Source: Verrucomicrobia bacterium UBA3783
Lineage (GTDB): Bacteria; Verrucomicrobiota; Kiritimatiellia; RFP12; UBA1067
Length of the DNA stretch: 64,000 bases
Direction: 5' to 3'
Assembly: GCA_002369235.1 (NCBI GenBank)
Contig: DFFF01000013.1
Span: 5,150 to 69,149, forward strand
Below are positions 15,481 to 58,690 of the stretch, piece by piece. The position numbers and the translations under genes were made by a program. The notes below the pieces were generated by a model. That model was not told the origin of the DNA, searched no databases, and worked only from the letters and a program-made list of their open reading frames with translations. The stretch's first letter is position 1. Each line of letters begins with the position of its first letter.

Positions 15481-17776
15481 AAGCGCGATCGGGCGCGTAC
15501 GCGAGGCGTTGGGCGCGAACCATCCGGTCGTATTGCAAGCGCCGCCGGGCAGCGGCAAGACCACGGTGGTGCCGCCTGCGCTCATAGATGAAGCGTGGCT
15601 TGACGGCAAGAAAATCGTGATGCTCGAGCCGCGCCGTCTCGCGGCCGTGCGCAGTGCATCGTTCATCGCCGCGCAACTTGGCGAAACTCCCGGCGGCAGG
15701 GTCGGCTATTCGATCCGGCTGGAGCGCAAGGTCTCGCGGGCTACGAGACTTGAAATCGTCACCGAAGGCATGCTCGCGCAGCGCATCCTCGCCGACCCCG
15801 AACTCTCCGATACCGGGCTTGTCATCTTCGACGAGTTCCACGAACGCTCGTTGCAGTGCGACTTGGGGCTTGCGCTTGCGCTGGATGTGAAGCGCGCGCT
15901 GCGTCCGGATTTGCGCATCATGGTGATGTCGGCGACGCTGGATACCGAAAGCATCGCCAGACACCTTGGCGCCGATACCATAACCGCCGAAGGGCGGATG
16001 TATCCGGTCGAGACCAGGTATCTTGGGGATGTGTCCATGACGGCGGCAATCAACATCGCGCTAAAGGAAACGGATGGCGACATCTTGTGCTTTCTGCCGG
16101 GTGCGGGCGAAATCAAGCGCGTGGCCGAGCAGGCGGCGGGCGTCGCCGCCGGATCCGGGAGCATTGCTCCGCTGATCGTTCCGCTATACGGTTCGCTTTC
16201 CAAGGAGGAGCAGGACAAGGCGTTTTGCAGGAGTTCGAGGCGCAAGGTTGTTTTGGCTACATCGATCGCTGAAACAAGTTTGACATTGCCGGGGATTACG
16301 TGTGTAATCGATTCCGGGCTGATGCGCGTGCCGAGATTCAGGCCGGGCACGGGAATGAGCGGACTGGTGACGCTGCCGCTTACGCTTGACCGTGCGGAGC
16401 AGCGGCGCGGGCGCGCCGGACGCGTACGGCCGGGAGTATGCTACAGGCTTTGGAGCGAGAGCGAAAACGCCGTCCGCGGCAAGGCGATGACGCCGGAGAT
16501 TTTCAATGCGGACCTGGCGCCGCTGGTGGCGACGGTCCGTGCCTGGGGAGCGCGGCGGCGAGAAGACCTGCCGTGGCTCGATCCGCCGCCCGAGGCGGCA
16601 TGGAACCAGGCGCTCGCGGTAATCGAGTCGCTGGGCATTCCGGCGGCGGAGTTGGGCGAATATCCGATGCATCCCCGCCTCGCGGCGATGATGATAAAGT
16701 GCGGTCGTCCGGCCGCAAGGCTGGCCGCGATTCTGGAAGAAGGAGGGGCTTCGCACGAGACGGAAATCGGCAAAGTGCGTCTCGGCGAGCGCCAGAAACT
16801 TTTGATGCGTCGCTTTGAGCGTCTGGCGAATGACGCAGACGGTGCGTTTTCGGACGGCTACATGCTGTCCTTCGCCTACCCGGAGCGCGTCGCGAAAAAC
16901 CGCGGCAACGGAACATTCAAAATGGCATCGGGGAAGGGATGCCACTTCGAGCCCGGCGATGCAATGGGCGGCTGCGAATTTGTGGTCGCCGCCGAACTTG
17001 ACGACCGCGAAGGCGACGCCAGGATTTTTCTCGCTGCGGAAATAACGAAGAGCGAAGTTGAAGCGCGGTTCGCCGGTGCGATAAAAAGCGAACCGTTTTG
17101 CGAATGGGATCGGAGGACCGAAAGCGTCCGCTTTGGCGTGCGCCGGAAGCTTGGAAATCTAACGCTCGATGAAAAACCAGCGTCAACAGCCGATGGCGTT
17201 GAAGATGCGCTATTGGAGGGAATACGACAAAAGGGCGTGGACAACCTGCCCTGTTGGACGAAGTCTGCAATCGCGCTGAAGGAGCGAATCGCCTTTGCAT
17301 GGGGTTGGGACGAAGAAAAATTCCTCGAAGCGTTAAAGGGTTTCGTGGGCGGCATTGTCAGATACCGGGATTTGGAGAGTGTGGATTTGTGCGCGGTGAT
17401 GGAGTTCATGCTGACCGATGCCGGGCATTCCCGCGTTGAGCTCGATCGTCTTGCGCCGGCGCGGATTGAAGTGCCGTCCGGCAGCCTGATTCAAGTGCGC
17501 TACGGCGGCGACGAACCGCGAATGGAAGTGCGGCTGCAGGAGTGCTTCGGGATGATGGATTCGCCAAAAGTCCTTGGCGGCAGGATGCCGGTCGTGATGG
17601 TGCTGCTTTCGCCGGCGCAGCGTCCGGTGCAGATAACGAAGGATTTGCGCGGATTCTGGAAAGAAGGGTATGCGCTTGTGCGCAAGGATATGCGTGGACG
17701 GTATCCAAAACACTATTGGCCGGAAGATCCGTTTTCGGCGGTGCCCACGAGGAAAACGAGGCCGAAGAATGTTTGA
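15461..17776 (+). CDS. hrpB: ATP-dependent DEAH-box helicase HrpB
   Basis: 'APPGSGKTT', 'DEFHER', 'SAT', plus HA2 and HrpB C-terminal region. ATG 15461 chosen (N-terminus 'MSGFPVESAIGRVREAL'). Confidence 0.8.
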   Translation: MSGFPVESAIGRVREALGANHPVVLQAPPGSGKTTVVPPALIDEAWLDGKKIVMLEPRRLAAVRSASFIAAQLGETPGGRVGYSIRLERKVSRATRLEIVTEGMLAQRILADPELSDTGLVIFDEFHERSLQCDLGLALALDVKRALRPDLRIMVMSATLDTESIARHLGADTITAEGRMYPVETRYLGDVSMTAAINIALKETDGDILCFLPGAGEIKRVAEQAAGVAAGSGSIAPLIVPLYGSLSKEEQDKAFCRSSRRKVVLATSIAETSLTLPGITCVIDSGLMRVPRFRPGTGMSGLVTLPLTLDRAEQRRGRAGRVRPGVCYRLWSESENAVRGKAMTPEIFNADLAPLVATVRAWGARRREDLPWLDPPPEAAWNQALAVIESLGIPAAELGEYPMHPRLAAMMIKCGRPAARLAAILEEGGASHETEIGKVRLGERQKLLMRRFERLANDADGAFSDGYMLSFAYPERVAKNRGNGTFKMASGKGCHFEPGDAMGGCEFVVAAELDDREGDARIFLAAEITKSEVEARFAGAIKSEPFCEWDRRTESVRFGVRRKLGNLTLDEKPASTADGVEDALLEGIRQKGVDNLPCWTKSAIALKERIAFAWGWDEEKFLEALKGFVGGIVRYRDLESVDLCAVMEFMLTDAGHSRVELDRLAPARIEVPSGSLIQVRYGGDEPRMEVRLQECFGMMDSPKVLGGRMPVVMVLLSPAQRPVQITKDLRGFWKEGYALVRKDMRGRYPKHYWPEDPFSAVPTRKTRPKNV

Positions 17777-18635
17777 GTGCGAGCTGTGTCCGCGAAGATG
17801 CGGCAGGAGACCGGGATTCTGCGGCGCAGGGGAGATGCCGCGCGTCTTCCGGTGGGGGCCGCACTTCGGGGAAGAGCCGCCATTGGTCGGCAAGGGCGGC
17901 TCCGGGTGCGTGTTCTTCTCGCGCTGCACGCTCAAATGCCTTTATTGCCAGAATTCTCCGTGGAGCTGGAAGGGAGAAGGACAAGACAAAACAATCGGAG
18001 AGCTTACGGCCATATTCCGGGAGCTTGCGGTGAATGACGGGTGCTCCAATTGGAATCTCGTCTCGCCCACTCCATATCTGCCGTTCATCCGCGAGGCGAT
18101 AGCGCCGCTGAAAAAGGAAGGGATAGCATTGCCTGTCGTCTGGAATTCGTCGGGATACGAGCGCGTGGAGACGATAGGGGAGTATCGCGACCTTTGCGAT
18201 TGGGCGCTTTTCGACTTGCGATATTCGCGCGAGGAGACGGCGCGCAAAGCGAGTGCCGCCGTCGATTATGTCGCGCACGCCAGAGCGGCGCTTAAATTCG
18301 CCGTGGATGAGGTTTGCGGACCGGAGCGGACGATATGTCGCATTCTCGTTTTGCCGGGGCATCATGAAGAGGCGATCGAGAATCTCGCGTGGATTGCTGC
18401 GAATCTGGGCACGGAGATCATGGTGTCGGTCATGGCGCAATATACGCCCGCCTACAAGGCGCTTGAAACGCCGCCGTTCGACCGCAAGCTTACCGAATAC
18501 GAATACGCCGAGGTGGCCGAGGCCGCGGCGGATTTCGGGTTCGAGAACGGTTGGACGCAAGCGCTGGAGTCCTCAGACCCGGCATTGGCGCTTCTGGGCG
18601 AGAATATGACTAAAGGTCATGGCGCCGTGCGCTGA
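17769..18635 (+). CDS. PflA-like radical SAM activase family protein (AmmeMemoRadiSam-type N-terminus)
   Basis: N-terminal 'CELCPRRCGRRPGFCG' Cys motif followed by 'CTLKCLYCQN' CxxxCxxC. Confidence 0.5.
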   Translation: MFECELCPRRCGRRPGFCGAGEMPRVFRWGPHFGEEPPLVGKGGSGCVFFSRCTLKCLYCQNSPWSWKGEGQDKTIGELTAIFRELAVNDGCSNWNLVSPTPYLPFIREAIAPLKKEGIALPVVWNSSGYERVETIGEYRDLCDWALFDLRYSREETARKASAAVDYVAHARAALKFAVDEVCGPERTICRILVLPGHHEEAIENLAWIAANLGTEIMVSVMAQYTPAYKALETPPFDRKLTEYEYAEVAEAAADFGFENGWTQALESSDPALALLGENMTKGHGAVR

Positions 18636-25749: not shown

Positions 25750-27534
25750 ATGAAGATGCATTTTTGCGGAATTGGCGGCGTAGGCATGGCCGCACTTGCC
25801 GCGCTTTTGAAGAGCGAAGGGCACGAGATCGACGGTTGCGATCTCGCGCTTTCGCCGCGCACGGCGTGGCTGGAGAGTCTTGGAATCAAAGTGTTTTGCG
25901 GCCATGATGCGGCGCATGTCAAATCTGCCGAGCTCGTCGTCTCTACGCCGGCGATGGCTGCGGATTCGCCCGAACTTGCCGCCGCGCGGAAAACGATCAT
26001 GCGCGGCGAACTGCTCGCGAAAGTGTCGTCATCCCGCAAAACGGTGGCCGTGTGCGGATCTCACGGCAAAACCACTACCGCCACTTTCACCGCAAAACTC
26101 CTCAAAGAACTGGGCGACGATCCGGCTTGGGCGATCGGCGGCGAGACTGGAGATTTCCCGGTCGCCGGATTCGGCAAAGGTCCGCTCGTCGTCGAAGCCG
26201 ACGAATCCGACGGCACTCTTGCCGGATACCGCTCCGAGATTCTTGTCGTCACCAATTGCGAATACGACCATCCCGACCACTTCAAGACCAAGGCCGACTA
26301 TATTGCCTGTTTTGACGCCGCGCGCAGGAATGCGAAGCGGATAGTAGAGGCGGAAACTTTATCTTTAGAGGACTGGAATATCCCTCTTTCCGCGCCGCAC
26401 AACCGGCGCAATGCGCGGGCGGCGATAGAAGTGGCGAGGATTCTCGGCCATTCAAAGGAAGCGATAGCAAGAGCGCTTCCGGCGGCGGTTGCTGCGCTCC
26501 CAGACAGGAGATTCGAGCGTGTGTCGTCTGGTGTATATATTGACTATGCGCATCATCCTACCGAAATGGCGTGTGCAATCGCCATGGCTCGCGCCGAATG
26601 CAAAGGCCTGCTCAAGGTTCTGTTTCAGCCGCACCGGTATTCGCGCACGAAGGCGTTGCTGAAATCTTTCCCGGCGGCTTTTCGCGATGCGGATGAAGTC
26701 GTCCTGTGTCCCACCTACGCCGCATTCGAAAAACCGGTCGAGGGCGGCGATATCGCAGATCTCTACAAGGAACTTCGCGAAAATCCCCATGCTTATTCGC
26801 TTTCGCTCGCACGAAGCTGTCGCGAAGCCTGGACCCATGCAATGCTGACGCGCAAGGAGGAGGATGTCGTTCTGGTGCTCGGCGCAGGCGACATCGTGAA
26901 GGTCGTCGGCCCTGAAATCCTGCCGCCGCGACGCACGCCGCTTGGCATGGGATCGAACACTTGGCGGAGCGACTTGGCGACGAACGAGGAGTTTTTCGCG
27001 GTCGACTCTCCGGCGGGGCGGCCTGGCGCAAGCCTCGGAATCCCGTGGATGGCGGGAATTCCCGGAACGATCGGAGGGTGGATCAAAATGAATGCCGGTG
27101 CACACGGGCATTCAATCTCCGAACTTGTCGAAGCGGTAAAGGTGGACGGCGTATGGACTGTTCCCAAGTTCGGATACCGCACTAGCGACATCAATGGCGT
27201 TATTGAAGATGTGCGCCTGAAGCCGGTTCCGCCCGGACCGGGCGCGGAGGAATATCTTGCGAGGCGCAGGAAGTTCCCGGTCGGCACGAAGGGCAGTGTT
27301 TTCAAAAATCCCGACGGCGATTTCGCCGGAAGGATTCTCGAAGCGGCGGGCGCAAAGAATCTTTCAGTCGGCGGCGCGAGGGTCTGGAGCGAACACGCGA
27401 ATGTCATCGTGTGCGGACCTGGCGCCGTTCCTGGCGATTTTCTCGCGCTTGCGCGGCTGATGCACAATCGCGCCTTTTTCGCCTGCGGTATCTCGCTGAA
27501 GCCGGAGGTGGTCGGGATCGACACGGACTTCTGA
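25750..27534 (+). CDS. murC: MurC-MurB fusion: UDP-N-acetylmuramate--L-alanine ligase fused to a truncated UDP-N-acetylenolpyruvoylglucosamine reductase
   Basis: Residues 1-~390 are MurC ('GIGGVGM', 'VCGSHGKTTT'). Residues ~390-594 are MurB: 'PLGMGSNT' (GxGSN), 'GIPGTIGGWIKMNAGAHG', 'GSVFKNP', 'GGARVWSEHANVIV' through the C-terminus. About 60 aa of the MurB FAD domain are missing. Confidence 0.8.
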   Translation: MKMHFCGIGGVGMAALAALLKSEGHEIDGCDLALSPRTAWLESLGIKVFCGHDAAHVKSAELVVSTPAMAADSPELAAARKTIMRGELLAKVSSSRKTVAVCGSHGKTTTATFTAKLLKELGDDPAWAIGGETGDFPVAGFGKGPLVVEADESDGTLAGYRSEILVVTNCEYDHPDHFKTKADYIACFDAARRNAKRIVEAETLSLEDWNIPLSAPHNRRNARAAIEVARILGHSKEAIARALPAAVAALPDRRFERVSSGVYIDYAHHPTEMACAIAMARAECKGLLKVLFQPHRYSRTKALLKSFPAAFRDADEVVLCPTYAAFEKPVEGGDIADLYKELRENPHAYSLSLARSCREAWTHAMLTRKEEDVVLVLGAGDIVKVVGPEILPPRRTPLGMGSNTWRSDLATNEEFFAVDSPAGRPGASLGIPWMAGIPGTIGGWIKMNAGAHGHSISELVEAVKVDGVWTVPKFGYRTSDINGVIEDVRLKPVPPGPGAEEYLARRRKFPVGTKGSVFKNPDGDFAGRILEAAGAKNLSVGGARVWSEHANVIVCGPGAVPGDFLALARLMHNRAFFACGISLKPEVVGIDTDF

Positions 27535-28876: not shown

Positions 28877-29785
28877 ATGGGGGCATCGCGCCCTGCCAAG
28901 CGCCGCACGCTGGTGTCCGAAGCTCCAGTCGCCGGAGTCGGCACGTTTTTCGGCGGCAGAAAGCAGACTATCACCTTCGCCCCCGGCGAAAAGCCCGGGT
29001 GGTGGATACGCCGCATGGATCTGCCGGAACAGCTCGACACCCAGATGGACATCTCCAATCTCTGGACAAGTGCGCAGAATCTGGTGATGCGCTCTGGTTC
29101 TCCGCACAATTATTTGCGAATGGTCGAGCATATCGTCGCGCTCAAGCTCGGGCTGGATGTCGACAATGTGCTCCTCAAGGTGAATTCCGGCGATCCGCCT
29201 TTGTTCGACGCCTCTTCGCTTCCGCTCATCAAGGCCATGGAGCATGCGAAGATCGTGGAGACGGAGGATGACGCCACTTACGTGACTGTGAAAGAACCGG
29301 TCGCCTTCGGCGGCAAGCGCGGAGATTTCCTGCTGTTCCTTCCCGCCGAGGGAGGATCGAAGAATCTGCGCATCGATTGCGCGATCAGCTGGAATACGAT
29401 CATCGGGCGGCAGCGCGTGCGGTTTGACGTCACGCCGGAAACTTTCCGCTATGCGTCCGAGGCGCGCACCAACTGCACCTACCAGCAATATCTCGCGGCG
29501 ATGACGATCGGCAAACTCTTTGCCGCCACGCGCCATTGGGGATACAACAAGAAGAACATCCTCATCCACGGCAAAGACCGGTTCTACTCCGAGCCGCGCT
29601 TCCCCAAGGACGGTAAATTTCTGGAACCCGTGTGGCATCGCGCCACGCTCGACCTCATGGCGGCGCTTGCGCTTACCGGCGCCGACCGTTTTTGCGGCAC
29701 TGTGGTCAGCTATCGCGCCGGTCACACGCTTGATTGCGACGCCGTCCGCGCACTCTACAGGAACGATCTCCTATGCCGCGTCTGA
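28877..29785 (+). CDS. lpxC: UDP-3-O-acyl-N-acetylglucosamine deacetylase LpxC
   Basis: Collinear with E. coli LpxC ('RRTLVSEAPVAGVG', 'MVEHIVALKLGLDVDNVLLKV', 'YRAGHTLDC'). GGAAGG Shine-Dalgarno before ATG 28877. The ORF extends to 28754, which is an alternative start. Confidence 0.75.
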   Translation: MGASRPAKRRTLVSEAPVAGVGTFFGGRKQTITFAPGEKPGWWIRRMDLPEQLDTQMDISNLWTSAQNLVMRSGSPHNYLRMVEHIVALKLGLDVDNVLLKVNSGDPPLFDASSLPLIKAMEHAKIVETEDDATYVTVKEPVAFGGKRGDFLLFLPAEGGSKNLRIDCAISWNTIIGRQRVRFDVTPETFRYASEARTNCTYQQYLAAMTIGKLFAATRHWGYNKKNILIHGKDRFYSEPRFPKDGKFLEPVWHRATLDLMAALALTGADRFCGTVVSYRAGHTLDCDAVRALYRNDLLCRV

Positions 29786-30564
29786 AACTCGAAAAGCCGC
29801 TCGTCGTATTCGATATCGAGTCTACCGGAACATCGCCGCGCAGGGACCGGATAATCGAGCTTGCCGCCATTCGCGTCGCTCCGGACGGAACTGAAGAAAG
29901 CCGTTGCTGGCTGCTCAATCCCACCATTCACATCCCCGAGGAAACGACTGCAATCCACAAGATCGCCGACGAAGACGTGAAGGACTGCCCGACGTTCGCC
30001 GACAAGGCGGCGGAGATATTCGAGTTCTTCCGCGACGCCGCGCTCTCCGGATACAATGCCGACCGCTTCGACATCCCGATGCTCGAAGAGGAATTCGCGC
30101 GCGTCGGGATGAATTTCGGCGCCGCCGCAAGGCCGCATATCGACGTGCAGCGCATATACCACAAAAAAGAGCCTCGCGACCTTTCCGCCGCGCTCAAATA
30201 CTATTGCGGACGCGAGCACACCGGTGCGCATGGCGCAGAGGCCGACACCCGCGCTACGCTTGATATCCTCAAAGCCCAGCTCGAACGCTACGACGATCTC
30301 CCGGACTCCGTCGCCGCGCTCGACGAATATCTCGCGCCGCACGATCCGCTCAACGCCGACCGCAACGGGATGCTGCGCTGGAAGGACGGCGAGCTCACGA
30401 TAAACTTCGGCAAGAAGAAAGGCGAAAAGCTCAAAGACCTCATGTTCAACGAGCCTAAATACCTAAAATGGATAGTCGGCGGCGATTTCGATTCCGATGT
30501 GCGCATGATTGTCAAGGACGCGCTCGAAAACGGCCGGCTTCCGCCAAAACCCGCAGGAATATAG
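29773..30564 (+). CDS. DEDDh (DnaQ-like) 3'-5' exonuclease with C-terminal extension
   Basis: 'LVVFDIESTG' (Exo I), 'SGYNADRFDIPML' (Exo II), 'HGAEADTRAT' (Exo III). Confidence 0.7.
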   Translation: MPRLKLEKPLVVFDIESTGTSPRRDRIIELAAIRVAPDGTEESRCWLLNPTIHIPEETTAIHKIADEDVKDCPTFADKAAEIFEFFRDAALSGYNADRFDIPMLEEEFARVGMNFGAAARPHIDVQRIYHKKEPRDLSAALKYYCGREHTGAHGAEADTRATLDILKAQLERYDDLPDSVAALDEYLAPHDPLNADRNGMLRWKDGELTINFGKKKGEKLKDLMFNEPKYLKWIVGGDFDSDVRMIVKDALENGRLPPKPAGI

Positions 30565-30566
30565 AT

Positions 30567-32102
30567 ATGGCAGACTGTTCGTCCATCCGCAAATTCGCCA
30601 CGGCGGCTGATTACCGCAAGAACTTCATCGTCCAGAGCGAAATCGACAAATATCTCCCCGGCGGCAAACACTTCATCGACGAGGCGAAGATAAACGCGCT
30701 CATTTCGGAGATGGACGAAAAGGGTGCGCCCGATCCAGTGAAGGTAAGGGAGATAATCGCCAAATCGGAGGCGACGCGCGAAACTTTGACGCCGGAAGAA
30801 ACCGCGATTTTGATGCGGGTGTCCGACAAAAACCTCTTTGCGGAAATGGAAGCGGCCGCCGAGCGGATCAAAAAGACCGTCTACGACAACCGCATCGTCG
30901 TGTTTGCGCCCCTGTACATGTCGAATCTCTGCGTGAACGGATGCAAGTATTGCGGCTTTCGCGAGGGCAACAGCGAGCAGCGCCGCCGCGTGCTGACGAT
31001 GGACGAACTCAAGGAAGAGCTTGCGGTCGTCGCCGGGCGCATCGGCCACAAGCGGCTCATAGCCGTCTACGGCGAGCACCAGACCACTTCCACCGAGTAT
31101 ATCGCCGAGACTATCGAGACTTGCTACGCCAATCAGTTCGCCGCCCCGCGCAGCGGAAAGAAAGTGGGCATCCGGCGCGTCAACGTCAACGCCGCGCCGC
31201 TCCCGGTCGCTGATCTCAAAGTCTTGCGCTCGGTCGGAATCGGCACCTTTCAGGTGTTCCAGGAAACCTACAACCGCAAACTTTATGAAGAGATGCATCC
31301 GTCATGGTCGGTGAAGGGCAACTACGATTGGCGCACGACATGCTTCCATCGTTGCCTTGAGGCTGGCGTCGACGATGTGGGGCTCGGCGTTCTATATGGT
31401 CTTTGCGATTGGCGTTTTGAACTGCTCGCGACCATAATGCACGCCCGCGATCTGGAGCGCTGGTTCAACATCGGGCCGCATACGCTGTCCTTCCCGCGTC
31501 TGGAGCCGGCCTCCGGCACGCGCGTCCCCGAAGAGTCGCCATGGCTCATCGACGACGAGACTTTCCACCGCATCGTCGTCATCGCGCGTCTCGCGGTTCC
31601 CTATACCGGCATCATCATCACGGCGCGCGAGAGCGCCAAGAGCCGCAACGGCATCCTTGGCTGCGGCATGACCCAGCTCGATTGTTCCAGCAATATCGCC
31701 ATCAAGGGCTACAGCGATTTCGCCGACGAGGCGCATCAGGAAAAGGAGCGCCAGCAGTTCATGCTTGGCGACAACCGTTCGTTGGACGAGATGGTGCGCT
31801 ATCTCGCCTCGCGGGACATGATCACCAGCTTCTGCACCGCGGGCTATCGCTGCGGCCGCACCGGCGGTTGCATCATGGACGCGCTCAAGACCGGTCGCGA
31901 AGGCAAGTTCTGCAAAATCAACGCGGTGCTTACCTTCCGTGAATGGCTCGACGACTTTGCGTCCGACGAAACCCGCGCAATCGGCGACCGGCTCATCGAC
32001 AAGGAACTCGCAGGCATCAAAGAGTGGCTGCCCAAGTTCTATCCCTCGGTAATGAAGCAATATGAAGCCACGTGCCGCGGCGAACGCGACATCTTCTTTT
32101 GA
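30567..32102 (+). CDS. HydG-like radical SAM tyrosine-lyase family protein (ThiH/HydG clade) with non-canonical C-terminal Cys motif
   Basis: 120-aa N-terminal region then 'FAPLYMSNLCVNGCKYCGF'. Long C-terminal domain ends 'GERDIFF'. C-terminal Cys spacing is C-x5-C-x5-C-x13-C where HydG has CxxC-x22-C. Confidence 0.55.
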   Translation: MADCSSIRKFATAADYRKNFIVQSEIDKYLPGGKHFIDEAKINALISEMDEKGAPDPVKVREIIAKSEATRETLTPEETAILMRVSDKNLFAEMEAAAERIKKTVYDNRIVVFAPLYMSNLCVNGCKYCGFREGNSEQRRRVLTMDELKEELAVVAGRIGHKRLIAVYGEHQTTSTEYIAETIETCYANQFAAPRSGKKVGIRRVNVNAAPLPVADLKVLRSVGIGTFQVFQETYNRKLYEEMHPSWSVKGNYDWRTTCFHRCLEAGVDDVGLGVLYGLCDWRFELLATIMHARDLERWFNIGPHTLSFPRLEPASGTRVPEESPWLIDDETFHRIVVIARLAVPYTGIIITARESAKSRNGILGCGMTQLDCSSNIAIKGYSDFADEAHQEKERQQFMLGDNRSLDEMVRYLASRDMITSFCTAGYRCGRTGGCIMDALKTGREGKFCKINAVLTFREWLDDFASDETRAIGDRLIDKELAGIKEWLPKFYPSVMKQYEATCRGERDIFF

Positions 32103-32112
32103 TCAGTGCATT

Positions 32113-33069
32113 ATGGTCTCGGTAATCATTCCTACCCACAATCGTGCGGAAATGGTCGTGAAGTGCGTCCAAAGCGTACTTGCGAGCGAAGGCGTGGAGC
32201 TCGAGGTCGTCGTGGCGGATGATTGCTCCACGGATGATACGAGAGCGCGGATCGAGCGGATTTTCGGCGGCGAAGCGCGGGTAAAGTATGTGCGCACTGA
32301 ACGGAGCGGGCTTTCGGCGGCCGCCAGGAATTGCGGTGCACGCGCCGCATCGGGAGAGTATTTCTTTTTCCTTGACGACGACAATGAACTCATGCCCGAT
32401 GCGATAAAGGAGCTGCTGGAATGCTTCAGGCGCAATCCTCGCGTGCGGCTGGTCGCGCCGCTCGCCGTCCAGTGGCATGAAGACGGCAGGCGGACCGTGT
32501 GGACCTTGGGATCTCAGTTCAATCCCTGGACTTCCCGGTCCCGCGAGTATTTCGCACCGTCGACGCCGCTTGACGAAATGCCGCCGGCGCCGGTTGGGAA
32601 AAGCGATTTCCCCACTACCTGCAGTCCCAACGCGTTCATGGTGAGGCGCGAGACATTTTTGGAGGTTGATGGATTCGACGAGGGATACGGGATGCAGTTT
32701 GACGAGACGGATTTCGGGCTTAGGGTGACAGCGAACAACCCGAATCTGGGCATGATTTGCGCCAAGGCCATTACGCGCCATTATGGCTATATAGGCCATG
32801 GCGAGGTCGTCGCATTGCGGGCGTTGGGAATAGAGAATGTGCGGCGGGCGTATGTCTTCGGTCGCAACCGGGTCAAGTTTGCGCGGCGGCACTTTGCATG
32901 GTATCAGGCGCTGTCGGTGACGCTGGTGTTCGCGCCCTTGTTGGCTCTCTGGTACTGCACGGTCGCTCTGACAAACGGCCGCCCCGATATCGCCTGGGCG
33001 TATCTCAAGGGGACGCTGGCGGGGATCCTGGGGCTTTACGGCACGAAACTTTATGGTGGCGGCAGATAA
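32113..33069 (+). CDS. family 2 glycosyltransferase
   Basis: 'MVSVIIPTHNRAEMVVKCVQSVL', 'ADDCSTDDT', 'FLDDDN' (DxD). Confidence 0.7.
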   Translation: MVSVIIPTHNRAEMVVKCVQSVLASEGVELEVVVADDCSTDDTRARIERIFGGEARVKYVRTERSGLSAAARNCGARAASGEYFFFLDDDNELMPDAIKELLECFRRNPRVRLVAPLAVQWHEDGRRTVWTLGSQFNPWTSRSREYFAPSTPLDEMPPAPVGKSDFPTTCSPNAFMVRRETFLEVDGFDEGYGMQFDETDFGLRVTANNPNLGMICAKAITRHYGYIGHGEVVALRALGIENVRRAYVFGRNRVKFARRHFAWYQALSVTLVFAPLLALWYCTVALTNGRPDIAWAYLKGTLAGILGLYGTKLYGGGR

Positions 33070-34300
33070 CCAAGGCGCTGCGACCGGCCATTTCCGCAGA
33101 ATGGAGGGCTGGAATTATGAAAAAGGCGCTTCGTTTTTCATAACGATAGCAACAGCGCCGCGCCGTGCGCTTTTTGGGCGTATGGCCGGCGGCAAAATGA
33201 TGCTTTCCCCGCTTGGAATTGAGGTTGCGGCATCGCTTGAACGCATGTCAGGCTTGTCGCCGGCGATCAGCCTTTTTGGCCATGTTGTGATGCCGGACCA
33301 TATTCACTTCAATTGTCATCTTGCCGCCGGACTGGAGGCGCCGCTTAAAACGCTTGGCGCCGCCATCAGGAGTTTCAAGAACCATACTACAAAGGTGTAT
33401 AAGGCTATGCTCGCGAACTCGGTTCGCGAGCCTGCACTGCACTTCCCATCTCCCGCCAGTGCAGGTGTGCGCGATTCCTCTCCCGCCAGTGCAGGCGCGC
33501 GCGATTGCCATTCCGCCAGTGCAGGTGCGCTCGATTCCCCTCCCGCCAGTGCAGGTGCGCTTGATTCCCCTCCCGCCAGTGCAGGTGTGCGCGATTCCTC
33601 TCCCGCCAGTGCAGGTGCGCTCGATTCCTCTCCCGCCAGTGTAGGTGCGCGAACCATGTTCGCGCACACCCTATGGCAGCGCGGCTACCACGACCATCTT
33701 TGTCTTTCGCGCCGCTTCATAGATGCCACAGAACGCTATATCGCTTACAACCCGCTAAAGTGGCAGCTTATGCACGGTCCTGGCGCCGTGCGCGTAGTGG
33801 AACCGGTTTTTTCTCCGCGCCTCGACCCTGGCGATTATTGGAAAGCGGCAGGCAACCTCGCACTTATCGCGCTGGAGATTCCGCTGGTTTCGCTGCGCGT
33901 TTCGCGCGAGGTTGCCGATTTCGCTCCGGTTCTGGCGCGGATGCGCACCGCCGCCGAGCGCGGCTACGCAATCGCGAGCGGCTTTATTTCCAAAGGAGAA
34001 CAGGCAGTGCGCGATATGCTCTGCCATCTGCCGCAAGGCCGTCTTGTGCGTGTCAGGCCGTCGGCAATCCCCAATGCGCGCTTCCGGCCTGAAAGTATTT
34101 ATGTTCGCGCCATGTCCGAGGGACGGTATCTCGAGCTCGGGAAAGGCAATGAAGACTTTGATTTCTCGCGTTCGGCGTGTTTGGACGTAAACCGCGAGAT
34201 TATCGGCATGGCGGCGGCGGGGCGCGGTCTCTCGCTGTATTTCAGAAAAGACGGACTCTACAAACTCTCTGGCGGCGGACAATGGCGAAAAACAAGGTAG
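33053..34300 (+). CDS. RAYT-like HUH tyrosine transposase (IS200/Y1 superfamily) with internal repeat insertion and ~165-aa C-terminal extension
   Basis: HUH 'GHVVMPDHIHF'. Y-motif block 'LWQRGYHDHLCLSRRFIDATERYIAYNPLKWQLMHG' matches the REP-associated tyrosine transposase signature. An alternative start at 33101 would avoid overlap with the GT2 gene. Confidence 0.6.
   Translation: MVAADNQGAATGHFRRMEGWNYEKGASFFITIATAPRRALFGRMAGGKMMLSPLGIEVAASLERMSGLSPAISLFGHVVMPDHIHFNCHLAAGLEAPLKTLGAAIRSFKNHTTKVYKAMLANSVREPALHFPSPASAGVRDSSPASAGARDCHSASAGALDSPPASAGALDSPPASAGVRDSSPASAGALDSSPASVGARTMFAHTLWQRGYHDHLCLSRRFIDATERYIAYNPLKWQLMHGPGAVRVVEPVFSPRLDPGDYWKAAGNLALIALEIPLVSLRVSREVADFAPVLARMRTAAERGYAIASGFISKGEQAVRDMLCHLPQGRLVRVRPSAIPNARFRPESIYVRAMSEGRYLELGKGNEDFDFSRSACLDVNREIIGMAAAGRGLSLYFRKDGLYKLSGGGQWRKTR
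33451..33652 (+). repeat. in-frame 30-bp tandem repeat (6 full + 1 partial unit) inside the RAYT-like CDS
   Basis: 'tcccgccagtgcaggtgcgcKcgattcctc' repeats encode 'PASAG(A/V)RDS(S/P)' decapeptides. Units differ by 1-4 nt. Confidence 0.9.
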
Positions 34301-40224: not shown

Positions 40225-43200
40225 ATGCAAAACGTTGCCAGGAAAACAATTCGCATGGTCATGAAAATCGCGCGCACCGTCGCGCTACTACTCGCCGTCG
40301 GCGCGGCTGGCGGAGCATGGGCAGATACGCCGTCATTGCTCAACTACATGAGCTTCGATAACACGGCTAATAAGGGTGTCGTCATACAGAAAGACGCAGG
40401 CACAATTGACCCAGTTAAGATAGATGGTGATTATGTCAATTACACAACAACTGACAATGCAAAGTTCGGAAACCATGCTTACCAAGCCAATAATGGTACT
40501 ATCGGGCTTCAGGATAACGATTCTGGCCTAGTCTCAAATGATGGTGGCTGGACTATCAGCTTTTGGTTCCATCCAAATGGCCAGTCCAACTGGAACTCCT
40601 TTTTTGGTTTCGGGTTGTTCAATGGGGACAATTATTTCTTTGTGAAGAATGGTAGCAACGCTTTCATTATCTACAAAGATACCACGTCAACAGATGATAG
40701 CGCACTTGGAACGCCTGCTCTAGGAGCTGTATCATATACGGCGTCGGCTTGGAATCACGTTGTGCTGGCATGTGCGGCTGGCACCGGCACCGTGACGCTT
40801 TATGTAAATGGTTCGTCGTGCGGTTCATTCACAATTGCAACTGACACATCCCTTCGAGAAGTGCTTTTGTGCCGCGGTCGCTGGCATAGCGATTCCAGCT
40901 CAGCATTTTATCGCAACAAGCAAACAACCTGGTTCGACGACTTCGCGCTGTTCGGCGGTGCTCTGACGCCATCGGCTGTCAAGACGATAGCGATGGGTGC
41001 GGATACTGCGCTTGGCCTCTACAATGCCGGCGAGTTAAACTTCTCTCGTTCTATCAATGTCAACTTCTATTATCTCTACAGTGGTAGTACGCCGTACACG
41101 GCTGTTTCCTTGGGCAACAATGGAACTGCCGCAGTGAACTCCAGCAGCGAAGGTTACGGCCAATACGCGGTAGAAGGTACATACTGGTCGGATGTGCTTG
41201 CAACGAGCACGGCGGCGCAAAGCGTAAAGGTGTTTGATGGCTCTGCCACATCTGATTCCACCGTCACTGCGACGATATCTGGCGCCAATGGCGGTGATTT
41301 CACGCAAAGCGCCTTCGATCATCATATCATGAGCGGCTACATTTCCGACTCGTCATCAAAGCTTGAGCCGACCGTCACATTTGCCAACATACCCTTTGCA
41401 AACTATCGGGTAGTGCTATATTTTGCCGTCAGTGGAGGCTCTGCCAGCAAGAAATACGGCTATGTCACGCTGAACGATACGATCAATGTCGCGGGCAACG
41501 GCAGCACGACCATATATGGCGATGGAGGAGCGACGGGATGGGGCGGCGCAGCAGTTGCAGCAAACAGTAAGAACAACATACTCCTCGGTCAGAACACGCT
41601 TGTTTCGCCTGTAATTGTAAACAATGCATCGGGCACTCTCAAAGTAAAAAGCCACGCGCTCTATAGCGGCAACACTGCTACATACTATGCAGGCCTTGCG
41701 GCAATTCAGATAGTCGAAGTTACGCCGAATTCAACTACGGGCACATATACATTCTCTCCCGCTGCCGATACGACGACTGCAATAACAAGTTCCTCAAGCT
41801 GGGATGACCTTCCTACCGGCAAGGGCGAAGATATAACTATTTCCATTTCAGGCGATGCGACGATTAATGTTGATAGGGATATGGCGTTTGGTACGATCAC
41901 GATTGCGAGCACCAGCGAAAGCGCGGCGACGCTAACTTTCGCTGGCTCGTGCCTCATCAACGCCACGCAAGTCAATGTCCCTGCCAATGTCACGGTGAAG
42001 TATGCTTCGTCCGTTTCCGGTGGCGCACCAATTATCAATGCGCCTGTCGTGCTCAACGATGCCACGGCCGCATTGGAAATCGCCGCTCCGGCGACGATGG
42101 CAAATGCGATTTCCGGTTCCGGCGAGGTCGTCGTATCCGCGAATGCAGTCGTGTTTACTGTTAAGAATACTTTCACAGGCGGTCTCACCGTGAAGAGCGG
42201 CGGCCTCGCAAAGACAACCGTCGCGGCGACAACAGGCGGCGGATTCGGTGGCACTGGAACAAATCCACAAGTTGGAACAATTACAGTAGAGAATGGCGGT
42301 ACCGTTGACGTCGCGAATTGCTATGGCAAGTGCGTGTATTCGCTCACAATCGAAGGTGATGGCGTGGATAATCAAGGGGCTGTCATTTGTTCATCTGCAA
42401 TAGGTGAGACCGAAAGGCAAATTACAGGTATTACGCTTACGGGAAACGCGTCGATTTCTTGTGCCAACAACTGGGGGCTTATCGCAAACGAATATACTGC
42501 AACAACCTTGTCATTAGGGTCTTATACACTCGAAAAGAAAGGCTCTGCGGCATTTTGGCTTACACGCACAACAGTGAGCGGTACGGGAACTTTGGATATC
42601 AAGGAAGGCATACTTGCTACAGGCGGTGCCACAAGCGGTACTTTAAATACAAGGGGCAATTGGACATATACAAGCAATTCGTCCGCACCTATCGTCATAC
42701 GAAATGGCGCCGCATTGACGGTCAACAATGCATCGTTGCGGGCAGATTCACTTACACTTGATTCCGGCAGTTCCATGAGTGTTGGCGGCGGCGCGTATGC
42801 GCTTGTCAACAATTCTGGCACATTGACTGCAAACGGCTCTGTTTCCGTAGCCGGAACGCTTTATATTGGCTGGAGCGGCAACGCCAGTTTCGTCGTCGGC
42901 TCCGACGTTGAAGTTACGGGCACAGGGCTTATTCATTTGATGTCAACCGCAACCATTACCAAGCAGGCGAGTGGCACGATCACCATCGGTCCTAATGCGA
43001 TGGTGCGGTGGATAGACTGCTCGTGGACTAACGAAAATGCTGGTGACATATTCAGGGGAGATGGAACATTGAGTTTGGAGGGAACTGGAGGAAACTATTC
43101 GTACTATCCAGATCCGTGTGCGTTTCCGGGAACGCTGAATGTAGTTACCCGAAACGGCACCTCCGATTACCACGCATATTACGCATACTTCAGTGGCGAC

Positions 43201-46200
43201 CCAAGTAAATTCACGGCAAGACCAAAGCTTCTTTTGGCTTGTGGAACGGAAGCGGATACTGGAAGTGTCCAGCTTGGAAGTCCAGCGCTTGGCAAAACGA
43301 TGAGCGTACGCGATTTGAATGGGCATGCTGTTATTTATCCTTGGGCAAGCAGCTCTGGCACGTTTACAATAGATACGCTTCAAAGGTCGGACACATCCTT
43401 CAACGGCATATTCGTGCAATATGCTGCTAATCAAGGTATTTCTGCGCTGACAGTCCGTGGCGAAACGGAAGCGACGCAGACGCACAGCCTTACGCTAACG
43501 AAGGCAAGCACGACTACTGGCGCCGCGACTGTCTGCGACAACGCGAAACTTATCTTCACCTCTTCCGGCTCGTGGGCGAACGGTACGGTGTCTGTTGCCA
43601 ATGGCGGGTATCTGGAAGTGAACAACTCCGACCCTGTCGCTTCGACGCTCGATTTGCAGTCTGGCGGCACGATTACAATCAAGACTGTCACGACGACAAC
43701 AACGACTGGAGAAGGCGACGAGGCCGTGGAAGAAACGACGACGAGCGTAGTGCCGATAGCGGCCGGCACGGTGACGTTCCCGGATTCCGGCGAGGCGGTG
43801 ATCGACATCTCTGCAATTCCCGATCTTGCTTCCAAAGAAAGCGTGGCAATAATCAACGCGACGACGTCGCTTGATTCGGACGTCTCGAAGATTCGTCTTA
43901 TCGGCAAGCCCTACTCGCTGAAGGTCGATGGCAATGCGCTCAAGGTCGTGAACGATGGCGGTCTTGTCTGGGATTCTGCGAAAGGCTGGGGTGAGAAGGA
44001 TGCCGCGAAATATGACGAGGCGACGATAACTTCGCCTGGCACGGTCGCGCTTGACGGCACGAGCCTCGCGTTCGATAAATTGACTCTCGCCGGCTCTGGC
44101 ACGGTCTCTTTCTCGCGGACCGGCGACGAGACGATTACGGTGAACAACATCGTTATTGGAAGCGGCGTGACTCTGGATGTGTCGGCGGCGCTGAACATAT
44201 CGGCTGGAGCGAGAATAACCGGCGACGGAACGCTGAACATTCCGAACGGCGTCACTCTTACGCTCGACGGCGTGACATGCTCTGCGAAGATAACCGCGCA
44301 AAACGGCGGCACTCTCGTAACGAAGGGCGCGACGGAGCTCTCTAACGATAACAACAACTTTGCATATGGCAGCCTTATCAAGGTCCTGACTGGCACGGCG
44401 ACGGTCAATGCGCATTTTAGTGCGTATAATTCTGCCGGTCGTGGTTTCCACGGCAACATCACGATTGCCGAAGGCGCGACATTCGTGAACAGCAAGACGG
44501 AATCCTTCGACTGCAACGCCGATTCGTCGCATCCGATTGTCGTCGATGTCTATGGCACTCTTTCAATGGGTTCGACCCGCTGGACGCTTGGCAACTACAA
44601 CACGATAAAGTTGCACGAAGATGCGACGATTACGGGTGAGGGAGATTCCTCATCTAACGGTGCGCTTAACGGTGCGCTCGATGTCGAGAACAATGTCACG
44701 ACATTCAAGATTATCGCGGACGGCAACGCGACGATACCCGCCAATATCCGAACCCGTAGCAAGATGCTTGTCGAAGTGTCCAACGGAAAGAATCTGACAT
44801 TCTCTGGGTCGCTTATAAGTTATGGCGATGGCAGCATCATGGAAGTAGTTTCCGGCCAAGTGACTACGACTACGCTGCCGGGCTTCAAAGTCAAGATCGA
44901 CGAAGGCGCGACATTCACGCTGAAGGATGCCGTATGGTCAGGTTCTACCGCCGACAAGTTCTCCGGCACAGGCACGCTGGAGTTGTATTCTGCGACCGCG
45001 TCCAAGGAGCATACGGCGACAGGTTCGACATTTGCCGGCATTGTCAAGTTCTCGAACGAAGGGGACAACCAGTGCAACATCAAGCCGTCAGGAGCCGCGA
45101 TGTTCACCGCGAGACCCGAATGGATCGCGAATGCATCAAGCATCCACCTTGGCGACGCCTCCAGCTACTACAACAATCTGGAGCACCCGATTCAAATCAG
45201 GAACTTGTCCGGCTCCAGTTCGGCCACGCTGAGAGCTGTGTATGGTGGCGCACTCTACAACTTCCTCATAGAGACTGTGCAGGAACGCGATACAGAATAC
45301 GCCGGCGAATTCACGCAAGGCGAGGCAACCATCAACTCCCAAAAAGTTGGGCGTTATACCAACCTGAAAGTCTTGGGCAACAATGCAAACGAGGTCCACA
45401 CCCTGACATTGTCGAAAGCGCAGAATACCGGAAACAATGTAGGACATTATGCAAGCACGTTGACGGTCTCAGATTACGGCAAGGTCAAGTTCACGTCCGT
45501 AGCAGGATGGGGGAACGGAACAGTAATCGTTGGAGCGAACGGCTATCTAGAGTCGTCTAGTTCTGCGGAATCCATTGCGGCGACGCTGACGCTGCAGGAT
45601 GGCGCGACGGTGGTGCGTGGTTCGCAACCTGTCAAGGCGACGGCGCTGACAGCGCTTGATGCCAATGCGACAATCAAGATTGCTTTTGCTGATGGCGTTA
45701 CGCCGGAAGATGGCATGGTCGTGTTGAGCGGCACTTGGGCTACAACACCACCGGATGCGGCGCGCTTTGCGTTCGCAAATTGGTTTGCATATGATGCTTT
45801 GTATGAATTTGAAGTTACCTCAACTGCCGTAAATATTAGGGAAAAGACAGAGACTGTTAGTGTTGATGAAACACCCATTACAGTCGGGTATCCCTGGATA
45901 GCGACAGCACAACGGAATACAACCCAAACGCCAGGTGCTAATTTGAACGACCTTGCGGATCTAAATACATATCTTACAAACAATGGTCTCAACGGCATGC
46001 CGCGTGCGGTGTCGTACCTGCTGGGGCTTGAGAATCCCGACGATGCGACGACGGCGTTTGTAATGGAGTCGGCGAGTGTTTCGTCGGGTGAGGGCAACAC
46101 TCCCGTTCTCACCTTCACGGGTAAGTCATATTCGACCGACCGAGCTACAGTGACATACAAGGTATTCGGCGGCGATTCGCCTGACAGTATGAGTGAAGTC

Positions 46201-46299
46201 ACTCCGGATAGCAATTCTGGCAATGTAATAACAGTGACAGTTCCCACGGAGTCGAGAGTTAAATATTATAAGTTGGAAATGACTGTCACGCCGAATTAA
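40225..46299 (+). CDS. 2,024-aa secreted giant protein: signal peptide + LamG/concanavalin-like lectin domain + long Thr/Ser/Gly/Asn-rich parallel beta-helix-type repeats
   Basis: Sec signal 'IARTVALLLAVGAAGGAWA'. LamG-like block ('WTISFWFHP', 'TVTLYVNGSSCG', 'WFDDFALFGG'). Downstream repeated 'G(T/S)xT(L/V)xxxG' beta-solenoid segments with an obvious internal duplication ('HSLTLTKASTTTGAATVCDNAKLIFTSSGSWANGTVSVANGGYLE' vs 'HTLTLSKAQNTGNNVGHYASTLTVSDYGKVKFTSVAGWGNGTVIVGANGYLE'). No PEP-CTERM and no autotransporter barrel. Confidence 0.8.
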   Translation: MQNVARKTIRMVMKIARTVALLLAVGAAGGAWADTPSLLNYMSFDNTANKGVVIQKDAGTIDPVKIDGDYVNYTTTDNAKFGNHAYQANNGTIGLQDNDSGLVSNDGGWTISFWFHPNGQSNWNSFFGFGLFNGDNYFFVKNGSNAFIIYKDTTSTDDSALGTPALGAVSYTASAWNHVVLACAAGTGTVTLYVNGSSCGSFTIATDTSLREVLLCRGRWHSDSSSAFYRNKQTTWFDDFALFGGALTPSAVKTIAMGADTALGLYNAGELNFSRSINVNFYYLYSGSTPYTAVSLGNNGTAAVNSSSEGYGQYAVEGTYWSDVLATSTAAQSVKVFDGSATSDSTVTATISGANGGDFTQSAFDHHIMSGYISDSSSKLEPTVTFANIPFANYRVVLYFAVSGGSASKKYGYVTLNDTINVAGNGSTTIYGDGGATGWGGAAVAANSKNNILLGQNTLVSPVIVNNASGTLKVKSHALYSGNTATYYAGLAAIQIVEVTPNSTTGTYTFSPAADTTTAITSSSSWDDLPTGKGEDITISISGDATINVDRDMAFGTITIASTSESAATLTFAGSCLINATQVNVPANVTVKYASSVSGGAPIINAPVVLNDATAALEIAAPATMANAISGSGEVVVSANAVVFTVKNTFTGGLTVKSGGLAKTTVAATTGGGFGGTGTNPQVGTITVENGGTVDVANCYGKCVYSLTIEGDGVDNQGAVICSSAIGETERQITGITLTGNASISCANNWGLIANEYTATTLSLGSYTLEKKGSAAFWLTRTTVSGTGTLDIKEGILATGGATSGTLNTRGNWTYTSNSSAPIVIRNGAALTVNNASLRADSLTLDSGSSMSVGGGAYALVNNSGTLTANGSVSVAGTLYIGWSGNASFVVGSDVEVTGTGLIHLMSTATITKQASGTITIGPNAMVRWIDCSWTNENAGDIFRGDGTLSLEGTGGNYSYYPDPCAFPGTLNVVTRNGTSDYHAYYAYFSGDPSKFTARPKLLLACGTEADTGSVQLGSPALGKTMSVRDLNGHAVIYPWASSSGTFTIDTLQRSDTSFNGIFVQYAANQGISALTVRGETEATQTHSLTLTKASTTTGAATVCDNAKLIFTSSGSWANGTVSVANGGYLEVNNSDPVASTLDLQSGGTITIKTVTTTTTTGEGDEAVEETTTSVVPIAAGTVTFPDSGEAVIDISAIPDLASKESVAIINATTSLDSDVSKIRLIGKPYSLKVDGNALKVVNDGGLVWDSAKGWGEKDAAKYDEATITSPGTVALDGTSLAFDKLTLAGSGTVSFSRTGDETITVNNIVIGSGVTLDVSAALNISAGARITGDGTLNIPNGVTLTLDGVTCSAKITAQNGGTLVTKGATELSNDNNNFAYGSLIKVLTGTATVNAHFSAYNSAGRGFHGNITIAEGATFVNSKTESFDCNADSSHPIVVDVYGTLSMGSTRWTLGNYNTIKLHEDATITGEGDSSSNGALNGALDVENNVTTFKIIADGNATIPANIRTRSKMLVEVSNGKNLTFSGSLISYGDGSIMEVVSGQVTTTTLPGFKVKIDEGATFTLKDAVWSGSTADKFSGTGTLELYSATASKEHTATGSTFAGIVKFSNEGDNQCNIKPSGAAMFTARPEWIANASSIHLGDASSYYNNLEHPIQIRNLSGSSSATLRAVYGGALYNFLIETVQERDTEYAGEFTQGEATINSQKVGRYTNLKVLGNNANEVHTLTLSKAQNTGNNVGHYASTLTVSDYGKVKFTSVAGWGNGTVIVGANGYLESSSSAESIAATLTLQDGATVVRGSQPVKATALTALDANATIKIAFADGVTPEDGMVVLSGTWATTPPDAARFAFANWFAYDALYEFEVTSTAVNIREKTETVSVDETPITVGYPWIATAQRNTTQTPGANLNDLADLNTYLTNNGLNGMPRAVSYLLGLENPDDATTAFVMESASVSSGEGNTPVLTFTGKSYSTDRATVTYKVFGGDSPDSMSEVTPDSNSGNVITVTVPTESRVKYYKLEMTVTPN

Positions 46300-57992: not shown

Positions 57993-58690
57993 TGAATCGC
58001 ATAATCATCGAGCCGGAGGAAATCGAGAAGGGGTGCGTTGTCCTTTCCGGGCGGCGGTTTGAACATATCAAGACCGTGCTCAAAAGCGATGTCGGCGATA
58101 TTCTCAAGACCGGAGAATTGAACGGCAAAATCGGCACCGGGAAGATCGCCGCAATCGACGACAAGAGTGTCACGCTCGAAATCGACCATTCGACCGACGC
58201 TCCGCCGCCGTGGTTCGACCTTATTCTCGCTCCGCCCCGGCCGCGGGTCTTCAAGCGTCTACTGGCGCAGCTAACCGCGCTGGGCATGCGCAAGCTCTTT
58301 CTGGTCGGGGCGAAAAAAGTCGAGAAGGATTTCTGGGGCGCCACTATCCTCAAAGAGGAAAACTACCGTCCGTTGCTTATCGAAGGCCTGGAGCAATGCG
58401 GAGCGACTGCCTTGCCGGAAATCCGCATTTCCCGCAATCTCAAGCGCTTCGTTGAATCCCAATGCTTAGGTCCGTGTCGTCTCATCGCGCATCCGGGCGG
58501 CAGAACGGTTGCCCCTTGGGCCGATACAATCGAAAAATCTCTCCCTGTGTTCGCCGTCGGCCCGGAAGGCGGCTGGACCGACGACGAGGTTGCGCTCTTC
58601 GAGGCGCATGGCTTTTCGCGCGTTTCATTAGGCCCGCGCATTCTCCGCACCGACACTGCACTCCTCGCGCTAATCGGCCGCTACCTCTGA
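57992..58690 (+). CDS. RsmE-family SPOUT methyltransferase (second paralog)
   Basis: 'FAVGPEGGWTDDEVAL...GPRILRTDTALLALIG', same architecture as rsmE at 2531. Confidence 0.7.
   Translation: MNRIIIEPEEIEKGCVVLSGRRFEHIKTVLKSDVGDILKTGELNGKIGTGKIAAIDDKSVTLEIDHSTDAPPPWFDLILAPPRPRVFKRLLAQLTALGMRKLFLVGAKKVEKDFWGATILKEENYRPLLIEGLEQCGATALPEIRISRNLKRFVESQCLGPCRLIAHPGGRTVAPWADTIEKSLPVFAVGPEGGWTDDEVALFEAHGFSRVSLGPRILRTDTALLALIGRYL

Follow-up and report, generated by a model that had tools for sequence, protein, structure and literature searches.

The auxiliary [4Fe-4S] cluster of HydG, the radical S-adenosylmethionine (SAM) tyrosine lyase of [FeFe]-hydrogenase maturation, is where CO and CN- are fixed on iron, and its arrangement of three cysteine ligands and one open Fe is central to the current mechanism. 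One Fe of this cluster carries no Cys ligand and is bridged via a free cysteine to a fifth, 'dangler' Fe (PMC8855341; PMC10114646), the sole protein ligand of which is a conserved histidine, His265 in the Thermoanaerobacter italicus enzyme TiHydG (PMC8855341). HydG proteins (TIGR03955; structures 4WCX from T. italicus and 4RTB, ChHydG, from Carboxydothermus hydrogenoformans) are built from N-terminal helices, a CX3CX2C TIM barrel, a BATS domain and a C-terminal cluster domain of ~90 residues with the motif C-x2-C-x22-C. Variability of this motif has been noted earlier, and candidates with C-x4-C-x23-25-C were proposed in Clostridium acetogens (PMC9431212). Here we describe a HydG encoded in a 64,000-nucleotide (nt) stretch of the Verrucomicrobia bacterium UBA3783 assembly (contig DFFF01000013.1, positions 5,150 to 69,149; hereafter the window) in which the second cysteine of the motif is replaced by glycine and further cysteines stand at +6 and +12 from the first. 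We put the probability at roughly 0.8 that this is a working HydG maturase of a gut/rumen Kiritimatiellae bacterium, the second cluster ligand of which has moved from +3 to +6.

The open reading frame (ORF) lies at 30567..32102 of the forward strand (ATG at 30567, stop codon at 32100-32102) and encodes 511 amino acids (aa). An alternative ATG is present upstream at 30468; the start at 30567 is preferred because 510-511 aa is the length of the 120 nearest proteins in the database, and because it lies only 2 nt past the stop of the preceding exonuclease gene (29734..30564). An earlier note on this DNA, written from the letters alone, had placed the protein with HydG rather than ThiH and proposed a comparison of hidden Markov model (HMM) scores. 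That comparison bears the assignment out: on the NCBIfam profile TIGR03955 the query scores 414.3 bits (cutoff 312.15), covering profile positions 9-468 of 470, and its orthologues score 421-446 bits. Pfam recognizes a Radical_SAM domain at residues 118-277, followed by BATS. The closest solved structures in sequence are 4wcx_A (E 3.7e-111, the alignment running through to its final residue, 480/480) and 4rtb_A, followed by ThiH (7pd1_A, E 5.6e-38) and NosL. All parts of the HydG architecture recur in the query, which is about 40% identical to TiHydG and shares with it the histidine of the GPHT sequence, the GRTG loop and the C-terminal GERD-x-x-F (GERDIFF in the query, GERDLYF in TiHydG), while its N-terminus is about 14 residues longer. 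The ~90-residue, HydG-like C-terminal domain that the earlier note had described, with this ending, is thereby recovered.

The predicted structure leads to the same family. An AlphaFold2 model from a 36-sequence alignment reached a mean predicted local distance difference test score (pLDDT) of 92.5 and a predicted template-modelling score (pTM) of 0.92, and a Foldseek search returned 4wcx_A as the best match, with a template-modelling (TM) score of 0.96 (target-normalised) and a root-mean-square deviation of 1.8 Å over 477 columns, the C-terminal domain included; the next matches were 4rtb, ThiH, NosL and HydE. ThiH (TIGR02351; 7PD1), the 2-iminoacetate synthase of thiamine biosynthesis, has the tyrosine-lyase radical SAM core and BATS domain in common with the query, and the ThiH model gives 229.8 bits over this core, where the TM score against 7PD1 is 0.89-0.90; moreover, several homologues are called '2-iminoacetate synthase' by JGI. 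Still, this score is far under the ThiH cutoff of 380 whereas the HydG score exceeds its own, the C-terminal cluster domain and the GPHT histidine, both lacking in ThiH, are present, no thiamine genes were found in Pfam scans of the window ORFs, and hydF adjoins orthologues of the gene (see below). A ThiH, or a ThiH-like lyase mis-scored as HydG, is thus ruled out by the HMM cutoffs and the C-terminal domain and merits next to no credence; nor did the outcome that the earlier note had named as fatal to its assignment, membership of another family with thiamine genes nearby, materialize. The query is a HydG. This naming has already been made for these proteins by the NCBI pipeline, and the family assignment is as such not new.

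What sets the protein apart is the auxiliary-cluster motif. Alignment to 4wcx_A and 4rtb_A places the query segment 'sfCtaGyrCgrtgGCimdalktgregkfC' opposite 'syCtaCyrmgrtgdrfmsfaksgqihnfC' of 4wcx_A, with cysteines at +0 (C423), +6 (C429), +12 (C435) and +26 (C449) and with Gly426 at the canonical place of the second Cys (+3). C423 and C449 are in register with the first and third HydG ligands, and the GRTG loop is kept. A literal C-x2-C-x22-C is absent from the query; the actual pattern is C-x2-G-x2-C-x5-C-x13-C, in which a three-cysteine set C-x5-C-x19-C is available. The reading of the motif in the earlier note, a lost second Cys, two extra ones at +6 and +12 and a preserved first-to-last span, consequently stands, and its worry that a canonical CxxC had been overlooked is settled by the Gly at +3 in the structure alignment.

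The alignment of the cysteine pattern across orthologues that the same note had suggested was extended to 137 full-length clade members, in which C423, G426 and C429 are each 100% conserved, C449 is 99% conserved, and C435 is 93% conserved, the remainder being the Lys of a Butyricimonas branch; the radical SAM cysteines 122/126/129 reach 99%. The exact motif FCTAGYRCGRTGGCIMDALKTGREGKFCKINA occurs in 111 of the 120 nearest homologues, and nearly all others vary only outside the Cys positions. These 120 nearest 90%-identity clusters are 72-96% identical to the query, and several are named by NCBI as HydG of Kiritimatiellia or Kiritimatiellae metagenome-assembled genomes (MAGs); a copy of 96% identity is found in JBGURT01 (ruminal_MAG_11). 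An exhaustive search of 50%-identity representatives, 319 of them with E<=1e-30, revealed a gap beyond this group, the next relative being P0121 at 54% identity, a cluster of 789 members that includes WP_099294737.1 of the Bacteroidota isolate Butyricimonas sp. Marseille-P3923 (GCA_900184685.1). Its motif, CTAGYRCGRTGDK, has Gly at +3, Cys at +6 and Lys at +12. In other lineages, short fragments read CTAGYRC with K-C, E-C, N-K, Q-K or K-K at +11/+12, and the P0126 group, 42% identical to the query, reads CTAGYRE, with Gly at +3, Glu at +6 and two auxiliary cysteines only. All other representatives at 35-46% identity have the canonical C-T-[AGS]-C, none of them with Cys at +6. Searching outward from P0118 led back to the same closed set and to no intermediate Kiritimatiellae lineage (e.g. 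Kiritimatiella glycovorans).

This distribution argues for C423, C429 and C449 as the ligands of the auxiliary [4Fe-4S] cluster, in the arrangement C-x5-C-x19-C: Gly at +3 is always paired with Cys at +6 in two large branches, the Kiritimatiellae and Butyricimonas ones, and Cys at +6 never occurs in a canonical CxxC sequence among the 50%-identity representatives. In addition, the Butyricimonas branch has only the equivalents of C423, C429 and C449 available, which points to C429 as the relocated ligand. Further clade-specific changes near the site, PSFC to TSFC, Phe+13 to Ile and CxPNA to CK(I/L)NA, suggest that the pocket around it has been remodelled. In the model the C-terminal domain is mostly helical with a single short strand, 419-421 (block-mean pLDDT 84-98); C423 follows this strand and C429 sits in the loop after a helix of one turn (425-428), while helix 433-442 has C435 in its first turn and helix 444-463 has C449 near its beginning.

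The fourth cysteine allows other assignments. The core change does without C435, as the Lys of Butyricimonas at this place shows, but in Kiritimatiellae the residue is fixed. Its role might lie in the second coordination sphere or in capping the unique Fe in the resting state, or it might have nothing to do with the cluster. More specifically, the Kiritimatiellae C435 might act as a fourth protein ligand at the site-differentiated Fe, capping it until cysteine and Fe(II) arrive or supplying the bridging thiolate itself, a proposal that we regard as unlikely. It is very unlikely that in a functional HydG C435, rather than C429, is the relocated ligand, or that the two alternate, for example with C435 capping the unique Fe at rest and being displaced by free cysteine: the model does hold both residues close in sequence to the cluster-binding loop and C435 is invariant in the Kiritimatiellae branch, but C429 is 100% conserved across both branches, and Butyricimonas, with Lys in place of C435 and no Cys at +3, must rely on it.

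The site expected to hold the dangler Fe appears to be retained. H305, within GPHT, is a His in 35 of 41 HydG-like sequences, in none of nine ThiH-like ones and in 136/137 members of the variant clade, and in the model it opens a strand of the barrel and lies on the side turned towards the C-terminal domain. From this conservation, and from where the residue falls in the predicted secondary structure, we infer that H305 is equivalent to His265 of TiHydG; its retention would mean that the variant keeps the machinery for the dangler Fe. A second candidate, H292 in MHARD, suggested by the chain numbering of 4wcx_A, was rejected, being equally conserved in ThiH-like sequences. As H292 is not the dangler ligand, the Gln at 292 in the P0118 cluster represents no loss of that ligand.

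The variant gene is linked to hydrogenase genes in several relatives. At two loci (L065 and L070) a 473-aa [FeFe] hydrogenase is encoded 4.7 kb upstream of the variant hydG on the same contig, with a match to Fe_hyd_lg_C and 518 bits (cutoff 450) on TIGR04105, the profile of monomeric group B [FeFe] hydrogenases; JBNMKZ01 is among the genomes with hydA near the variant hydG. At L081, hydF starts 3 nt past the hydG stop; its product scores 477 bits on TIGR03918 (cutoff 326) and carries the GTPase P-loop and the C-x-H...H-C-x-x-C motif. At L079 a hydG-hydF pair stands at the contig end. With the L081 HydF as bait, 120 clusters of 83-100% identity were retrieved, and HydF is thus common in the group. 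Six HydF-baited look-ups, covering 14 places (L083-L094 and L088), revealed a gene for a radical SAM and BATS protein directly upstream of hydF each time, of 511 aa where the contig allows (a shorter, 472-aa gene call in L085), and in 13 of the 14 the motif FCTAGYRCGRTGGC...C was identical; the contig of L091 does not reach the motif region. Pairs with the identical motif were found in 15 contigs and at least four flanking contexts, with gaps of 3-192 nt, and the genes around the pair (hemB/gltS, rpmA, pth, rfbB) vary by place; genomes with a hydG-hydF pair include CACZDG01 (RUG12514). Because the pair stays together while its surroundings change, gene order speaks strongly for the variant protein as the partner of HydF. 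The cultured relative K. glycovorans is reported to have a pair of bifurcating [FeFe] hydrogenases and to be a probable H2 producer (PMC5148204).

A gene for a 295-321-aa radical SAM protein, with no NCBIfam match and a weak match to pyruvate formate-lyase activase, was also observed in these surroundings. It follows the group B hydA directly at L065 (1591-2478) and L070 (about 1717-2505) and the variant hydG directly at L026 (about 11625-12410), and in the window it lies at 17670-18635 (+), 12 kb upstream of hydG.

In combination, we take the protein to act as other HydGs would. The radical SAM [4Fe-4S] cluster, on C122, C126 and C129, would cleave tyrosine, and the fragments would give CO and CN- on Fe at the C-terminal auxiliary cluster, held by C423, C449 and, in place of the +3 cysteine, C429. 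The fourth Fe of that cluster would stay open for cysteine and Fe(II), with H305 holding the dangler Fe, and the resulting Fe(CO)2(CN)(cysteinate) product would be passed to HydE and HydF for the H-cluster of [FeFe] hydrogenases whose genes lie in other parts of the genome.

Several observations weigh against this interpretation. The C-x2-C-x22-C motif is essential by mutagenesis in other HydGs (PMC9431212), and a functional enzyme with Gly at +3 consequently needs the compensation by C429 to be real. Of the 80 closest species loci, 78 show no hyd gene in the neighbourhood of hydG. No hydE was found in 1.37 Mb of flanks of the clade's hydG and hydF genes, either by a radical SAM motif scan or by tblastn, where the queries were HydE-like domains taken from HydG fusion proteins and the matches were only cross-hits into hydG; this survey covered the flanking DNA of the hydG/hydF loci. 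A second, canonical hydG may exist elsewhere in the same organisms. Lastly, the presence of hydA, hydE and hydF in the window's own genome is an expectation carried over from relatives.

A rival reading is a neofunctionalised HydG paralogue in which four cysteines fully ligate the auxiliary cluster and no Fe is left open for a cysteine-bridged dangler Fe. Its product, e.g. free CO/CN- or dehydroglycine and p-cresol alone, would replace the synthon and serve a pathway with no link to hydrogenases. The absence of the canonical second Cys, the conservation of all four motif-region cysteines across the Kiritimatiellae branch, the lack of hyd genes in the window and at most orthologous loci and the possibility of a canonical hydG elsewhere in these genomes would fit such an enzyme. 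Nevertheless we consider it unlikely: the identical four-Cys protein is encoded immediately upstream of hydF in many contigs, H305 is kept, the score on the HydG HMM clears the cutoff by a wide margin, and Butyricimonas shares the Gly at +3 and Cys at +6 with a Lys at +12, which leaves the fourth Cys outside the core change. The earlier note had correctly reported that no hyd genes are in the window and that the neighbours are an exonuclease and lipopolysaccharide (LPS)-type glycosyltransferases, confirmed respectively by Pfam analysis of about 49 ORFs with a scan for H-cluster and HydF motifs, which found no hydA, hydE or hydF in the 64 kb, and by the genes listed below. The weight it implied for this absence, a possible hydrogenase-independent role, does not hold in view of the identical-motif orthologues adjoining hydF and of hydA 4.7 kb away in two species. 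Furthermore, clustering of the flanking ORFs at the 80 loci gave no conserved operon or recurrent partner around hydG, and the window's neighbours are common only to L002-L004 (3/80); with the neighbourhood shuffled between species, the missing hyd genes in the window are not informative.

The 80 loci, from a scan of species-representative genomes, are nearly all from gut or rumen Kiritimatiellae MAGs, labelled Verrucomicrobia or Lentisphaerae. Nei-Gojobori dN/dS values of the window gene against six orthologues are 0.03-0.17, indicating purifying selection; the pair with L081 was left out, an internal indel disrupting its codon register. Judged from these comparisons, the variant motif is a selected feature of a strongly constrained protein. 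That the aberrant motif stems trivially from an error of sequencing or assembly, or from a pseudogene in decay, is ruled out by this conservation and by the dN/dS values and is wholly improbable: the ORF is intact and full-length, the motif is identical in 111/120 nearest clusters from many independent assemblies, and it is found in 80 species-level genomes. One MAG, RUI187 (JAILJX01), contains two variant hydG loci on different contigs (L011 and L054, 86% and 84% identical to the query), which points either to mixing of genomes in the bin or to a gene duplication.

A neighbour-joining tree, built without support values and hence tentative in its topology, unites the Kiritimatiellae and Butyricimonas sequences in one clade with the P0126 group as sister, nested among canonical HydGs, with the ThiH-like sequences outside the HydG radiation. 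P0126 itself, a 497-aa protein, scores 459 bits on TIGR03955. Elsewhere in the family, P0133 is a natural HydF-HydG fusion with a canonical HydG, and other fusions of canonical HydG have a second radical SAM domain upstream (P0123), HypC/HupF and radical SAM domains (P0124, P0130) or GAF and histidine-kinase ATPase domains (P0160).

Table 1. Coordinates of the variant hydG and its features in the window
Feature	Position	Strand	Evidence
hydG-type gene, radical SAM tyrosine lyase / [FeFe]-hydrogenase maturase, variant auxiliary-cluster motif	30567..32102	+	ORF, TIGR03955, 4wcx_A alignment, AlphaFold, Foldseek
Radical SAM cluster motif C122-x3-C126-x2-C129 (CVNGCKYC)	30930..30953	+	Motif scan; within Pfam Radical_SAM 118-277
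His305 in GPHT, HydG-specific histidine, putative equivalent of TiHydG His265	31479..31481	+	Conservation
BATS domain, residues 308-418	31488..31820	+	Pfam PF06968, 53.7 bits
HydG-specific C-terminal domain, residues about 419-511, ends GERDIFF	31821..32099	+	End-to-end alignment with the 4wcx_A and 4rtb_A C-terminal domains
Variant auxiliary-cluster motif C423-TA-G426-YR-C429-GRTGG-C435-x13-C449	31833..31913	+	Alignment to HydG C-x2-C-x22-C; conservation

The window is housekeeping DNA. It contains ddl, a murC-murB fusion, ftsQ/A/Z, lpxC, the exonuclease gene, hydG and then a glycosyltransferase block, as well as carB, pyrD, lptF/G, mutS and mutL. Directly upstream of hydG lies the exonuclease (RNase_T), with LpxC further upstream, and downstream are GT2, DUF5672, a GT9 heptosyltransferase and HldE, with ADP-heptose-pathway genes nearby. 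The apparent murC-murB fusion is a single ORF at 25750-27534 (+) with Mur ligase (MurC-like) and C-terminal MurB_C domains, situated in the division and cell-wall cluster. Beyond hydG, a 30-bp tandem repeat (33449-33651; 6.8 copies, 88% matches) encodes decapeptides of the type S-P-A-S-A-G-(A/V)-R-D in the middle of a 415-aa ORF without Pfam match (33053-34300, +), which has a homologue at one related locus (L033). A 2024-aa ORF at 40225-46299 (+), with Laminin_G_3 (residues 101-252) as its sole Pfam match, lies in a region of G+C 0.50-0.55, compared with 0.58-0.61 elsewhere, and may be an acquired surface-protein island. Two genes for RsmE-type (Methyltrans_RNA) methyltransferases, 2531-3244 (+) and 57992-58690 (+), are present in the one window.

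The nearest precedent for a non-universal spacing of the C-terminal cysteines is provided by the Clostridium acetogen candidates (PMC9431212), which differ from the query in having x4 where it has x5 and for which no fourth Cys was reported; those proteins matched the published HydG motifs incompletely and were put forward cautiously, whereas the query passes the HydG HMM and its relatives have an adjoining hydF. In the literature searched, coverage of which was incomplete, neither the C-x5-C-x19-C form nor the additional Cys at +12 was found described, and nothing specific emerged on HydG in Kiritimatiellae, on CX2CX22C or on hydrogenases of Butyricimonas. The protein is a conserved but modest variant of HydG, and not a new enzyme class or pathway.

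The clade is conserved and abundant in gut and rumen samples and, going by its sequences, very probably functional. It would show that +6 can take over from +3 as the place of the auxiliary cluster's second ligand, with a fourth Cys tolerated nearby. If C435 were indeed a ligand of the Kiritimatiellae enzymes, product assembly or release would differ from the free-cysteine 'dangler' model of the Shewanella and Thermoanaerobacter HydGs, and these proteins would lend themselves to a test, supplied by nature, of what the dangler Fe does, a matter under dispute. The C-x5-C forms with and without the +12 Cys, together with the two-Cys CTAGYRE form, constitute natural variants for bioinorganic probing of the ligand geometry and of the dangler site, and annotation rules that demand C-x2-C-x22-C would wrongly discard real HydGs.

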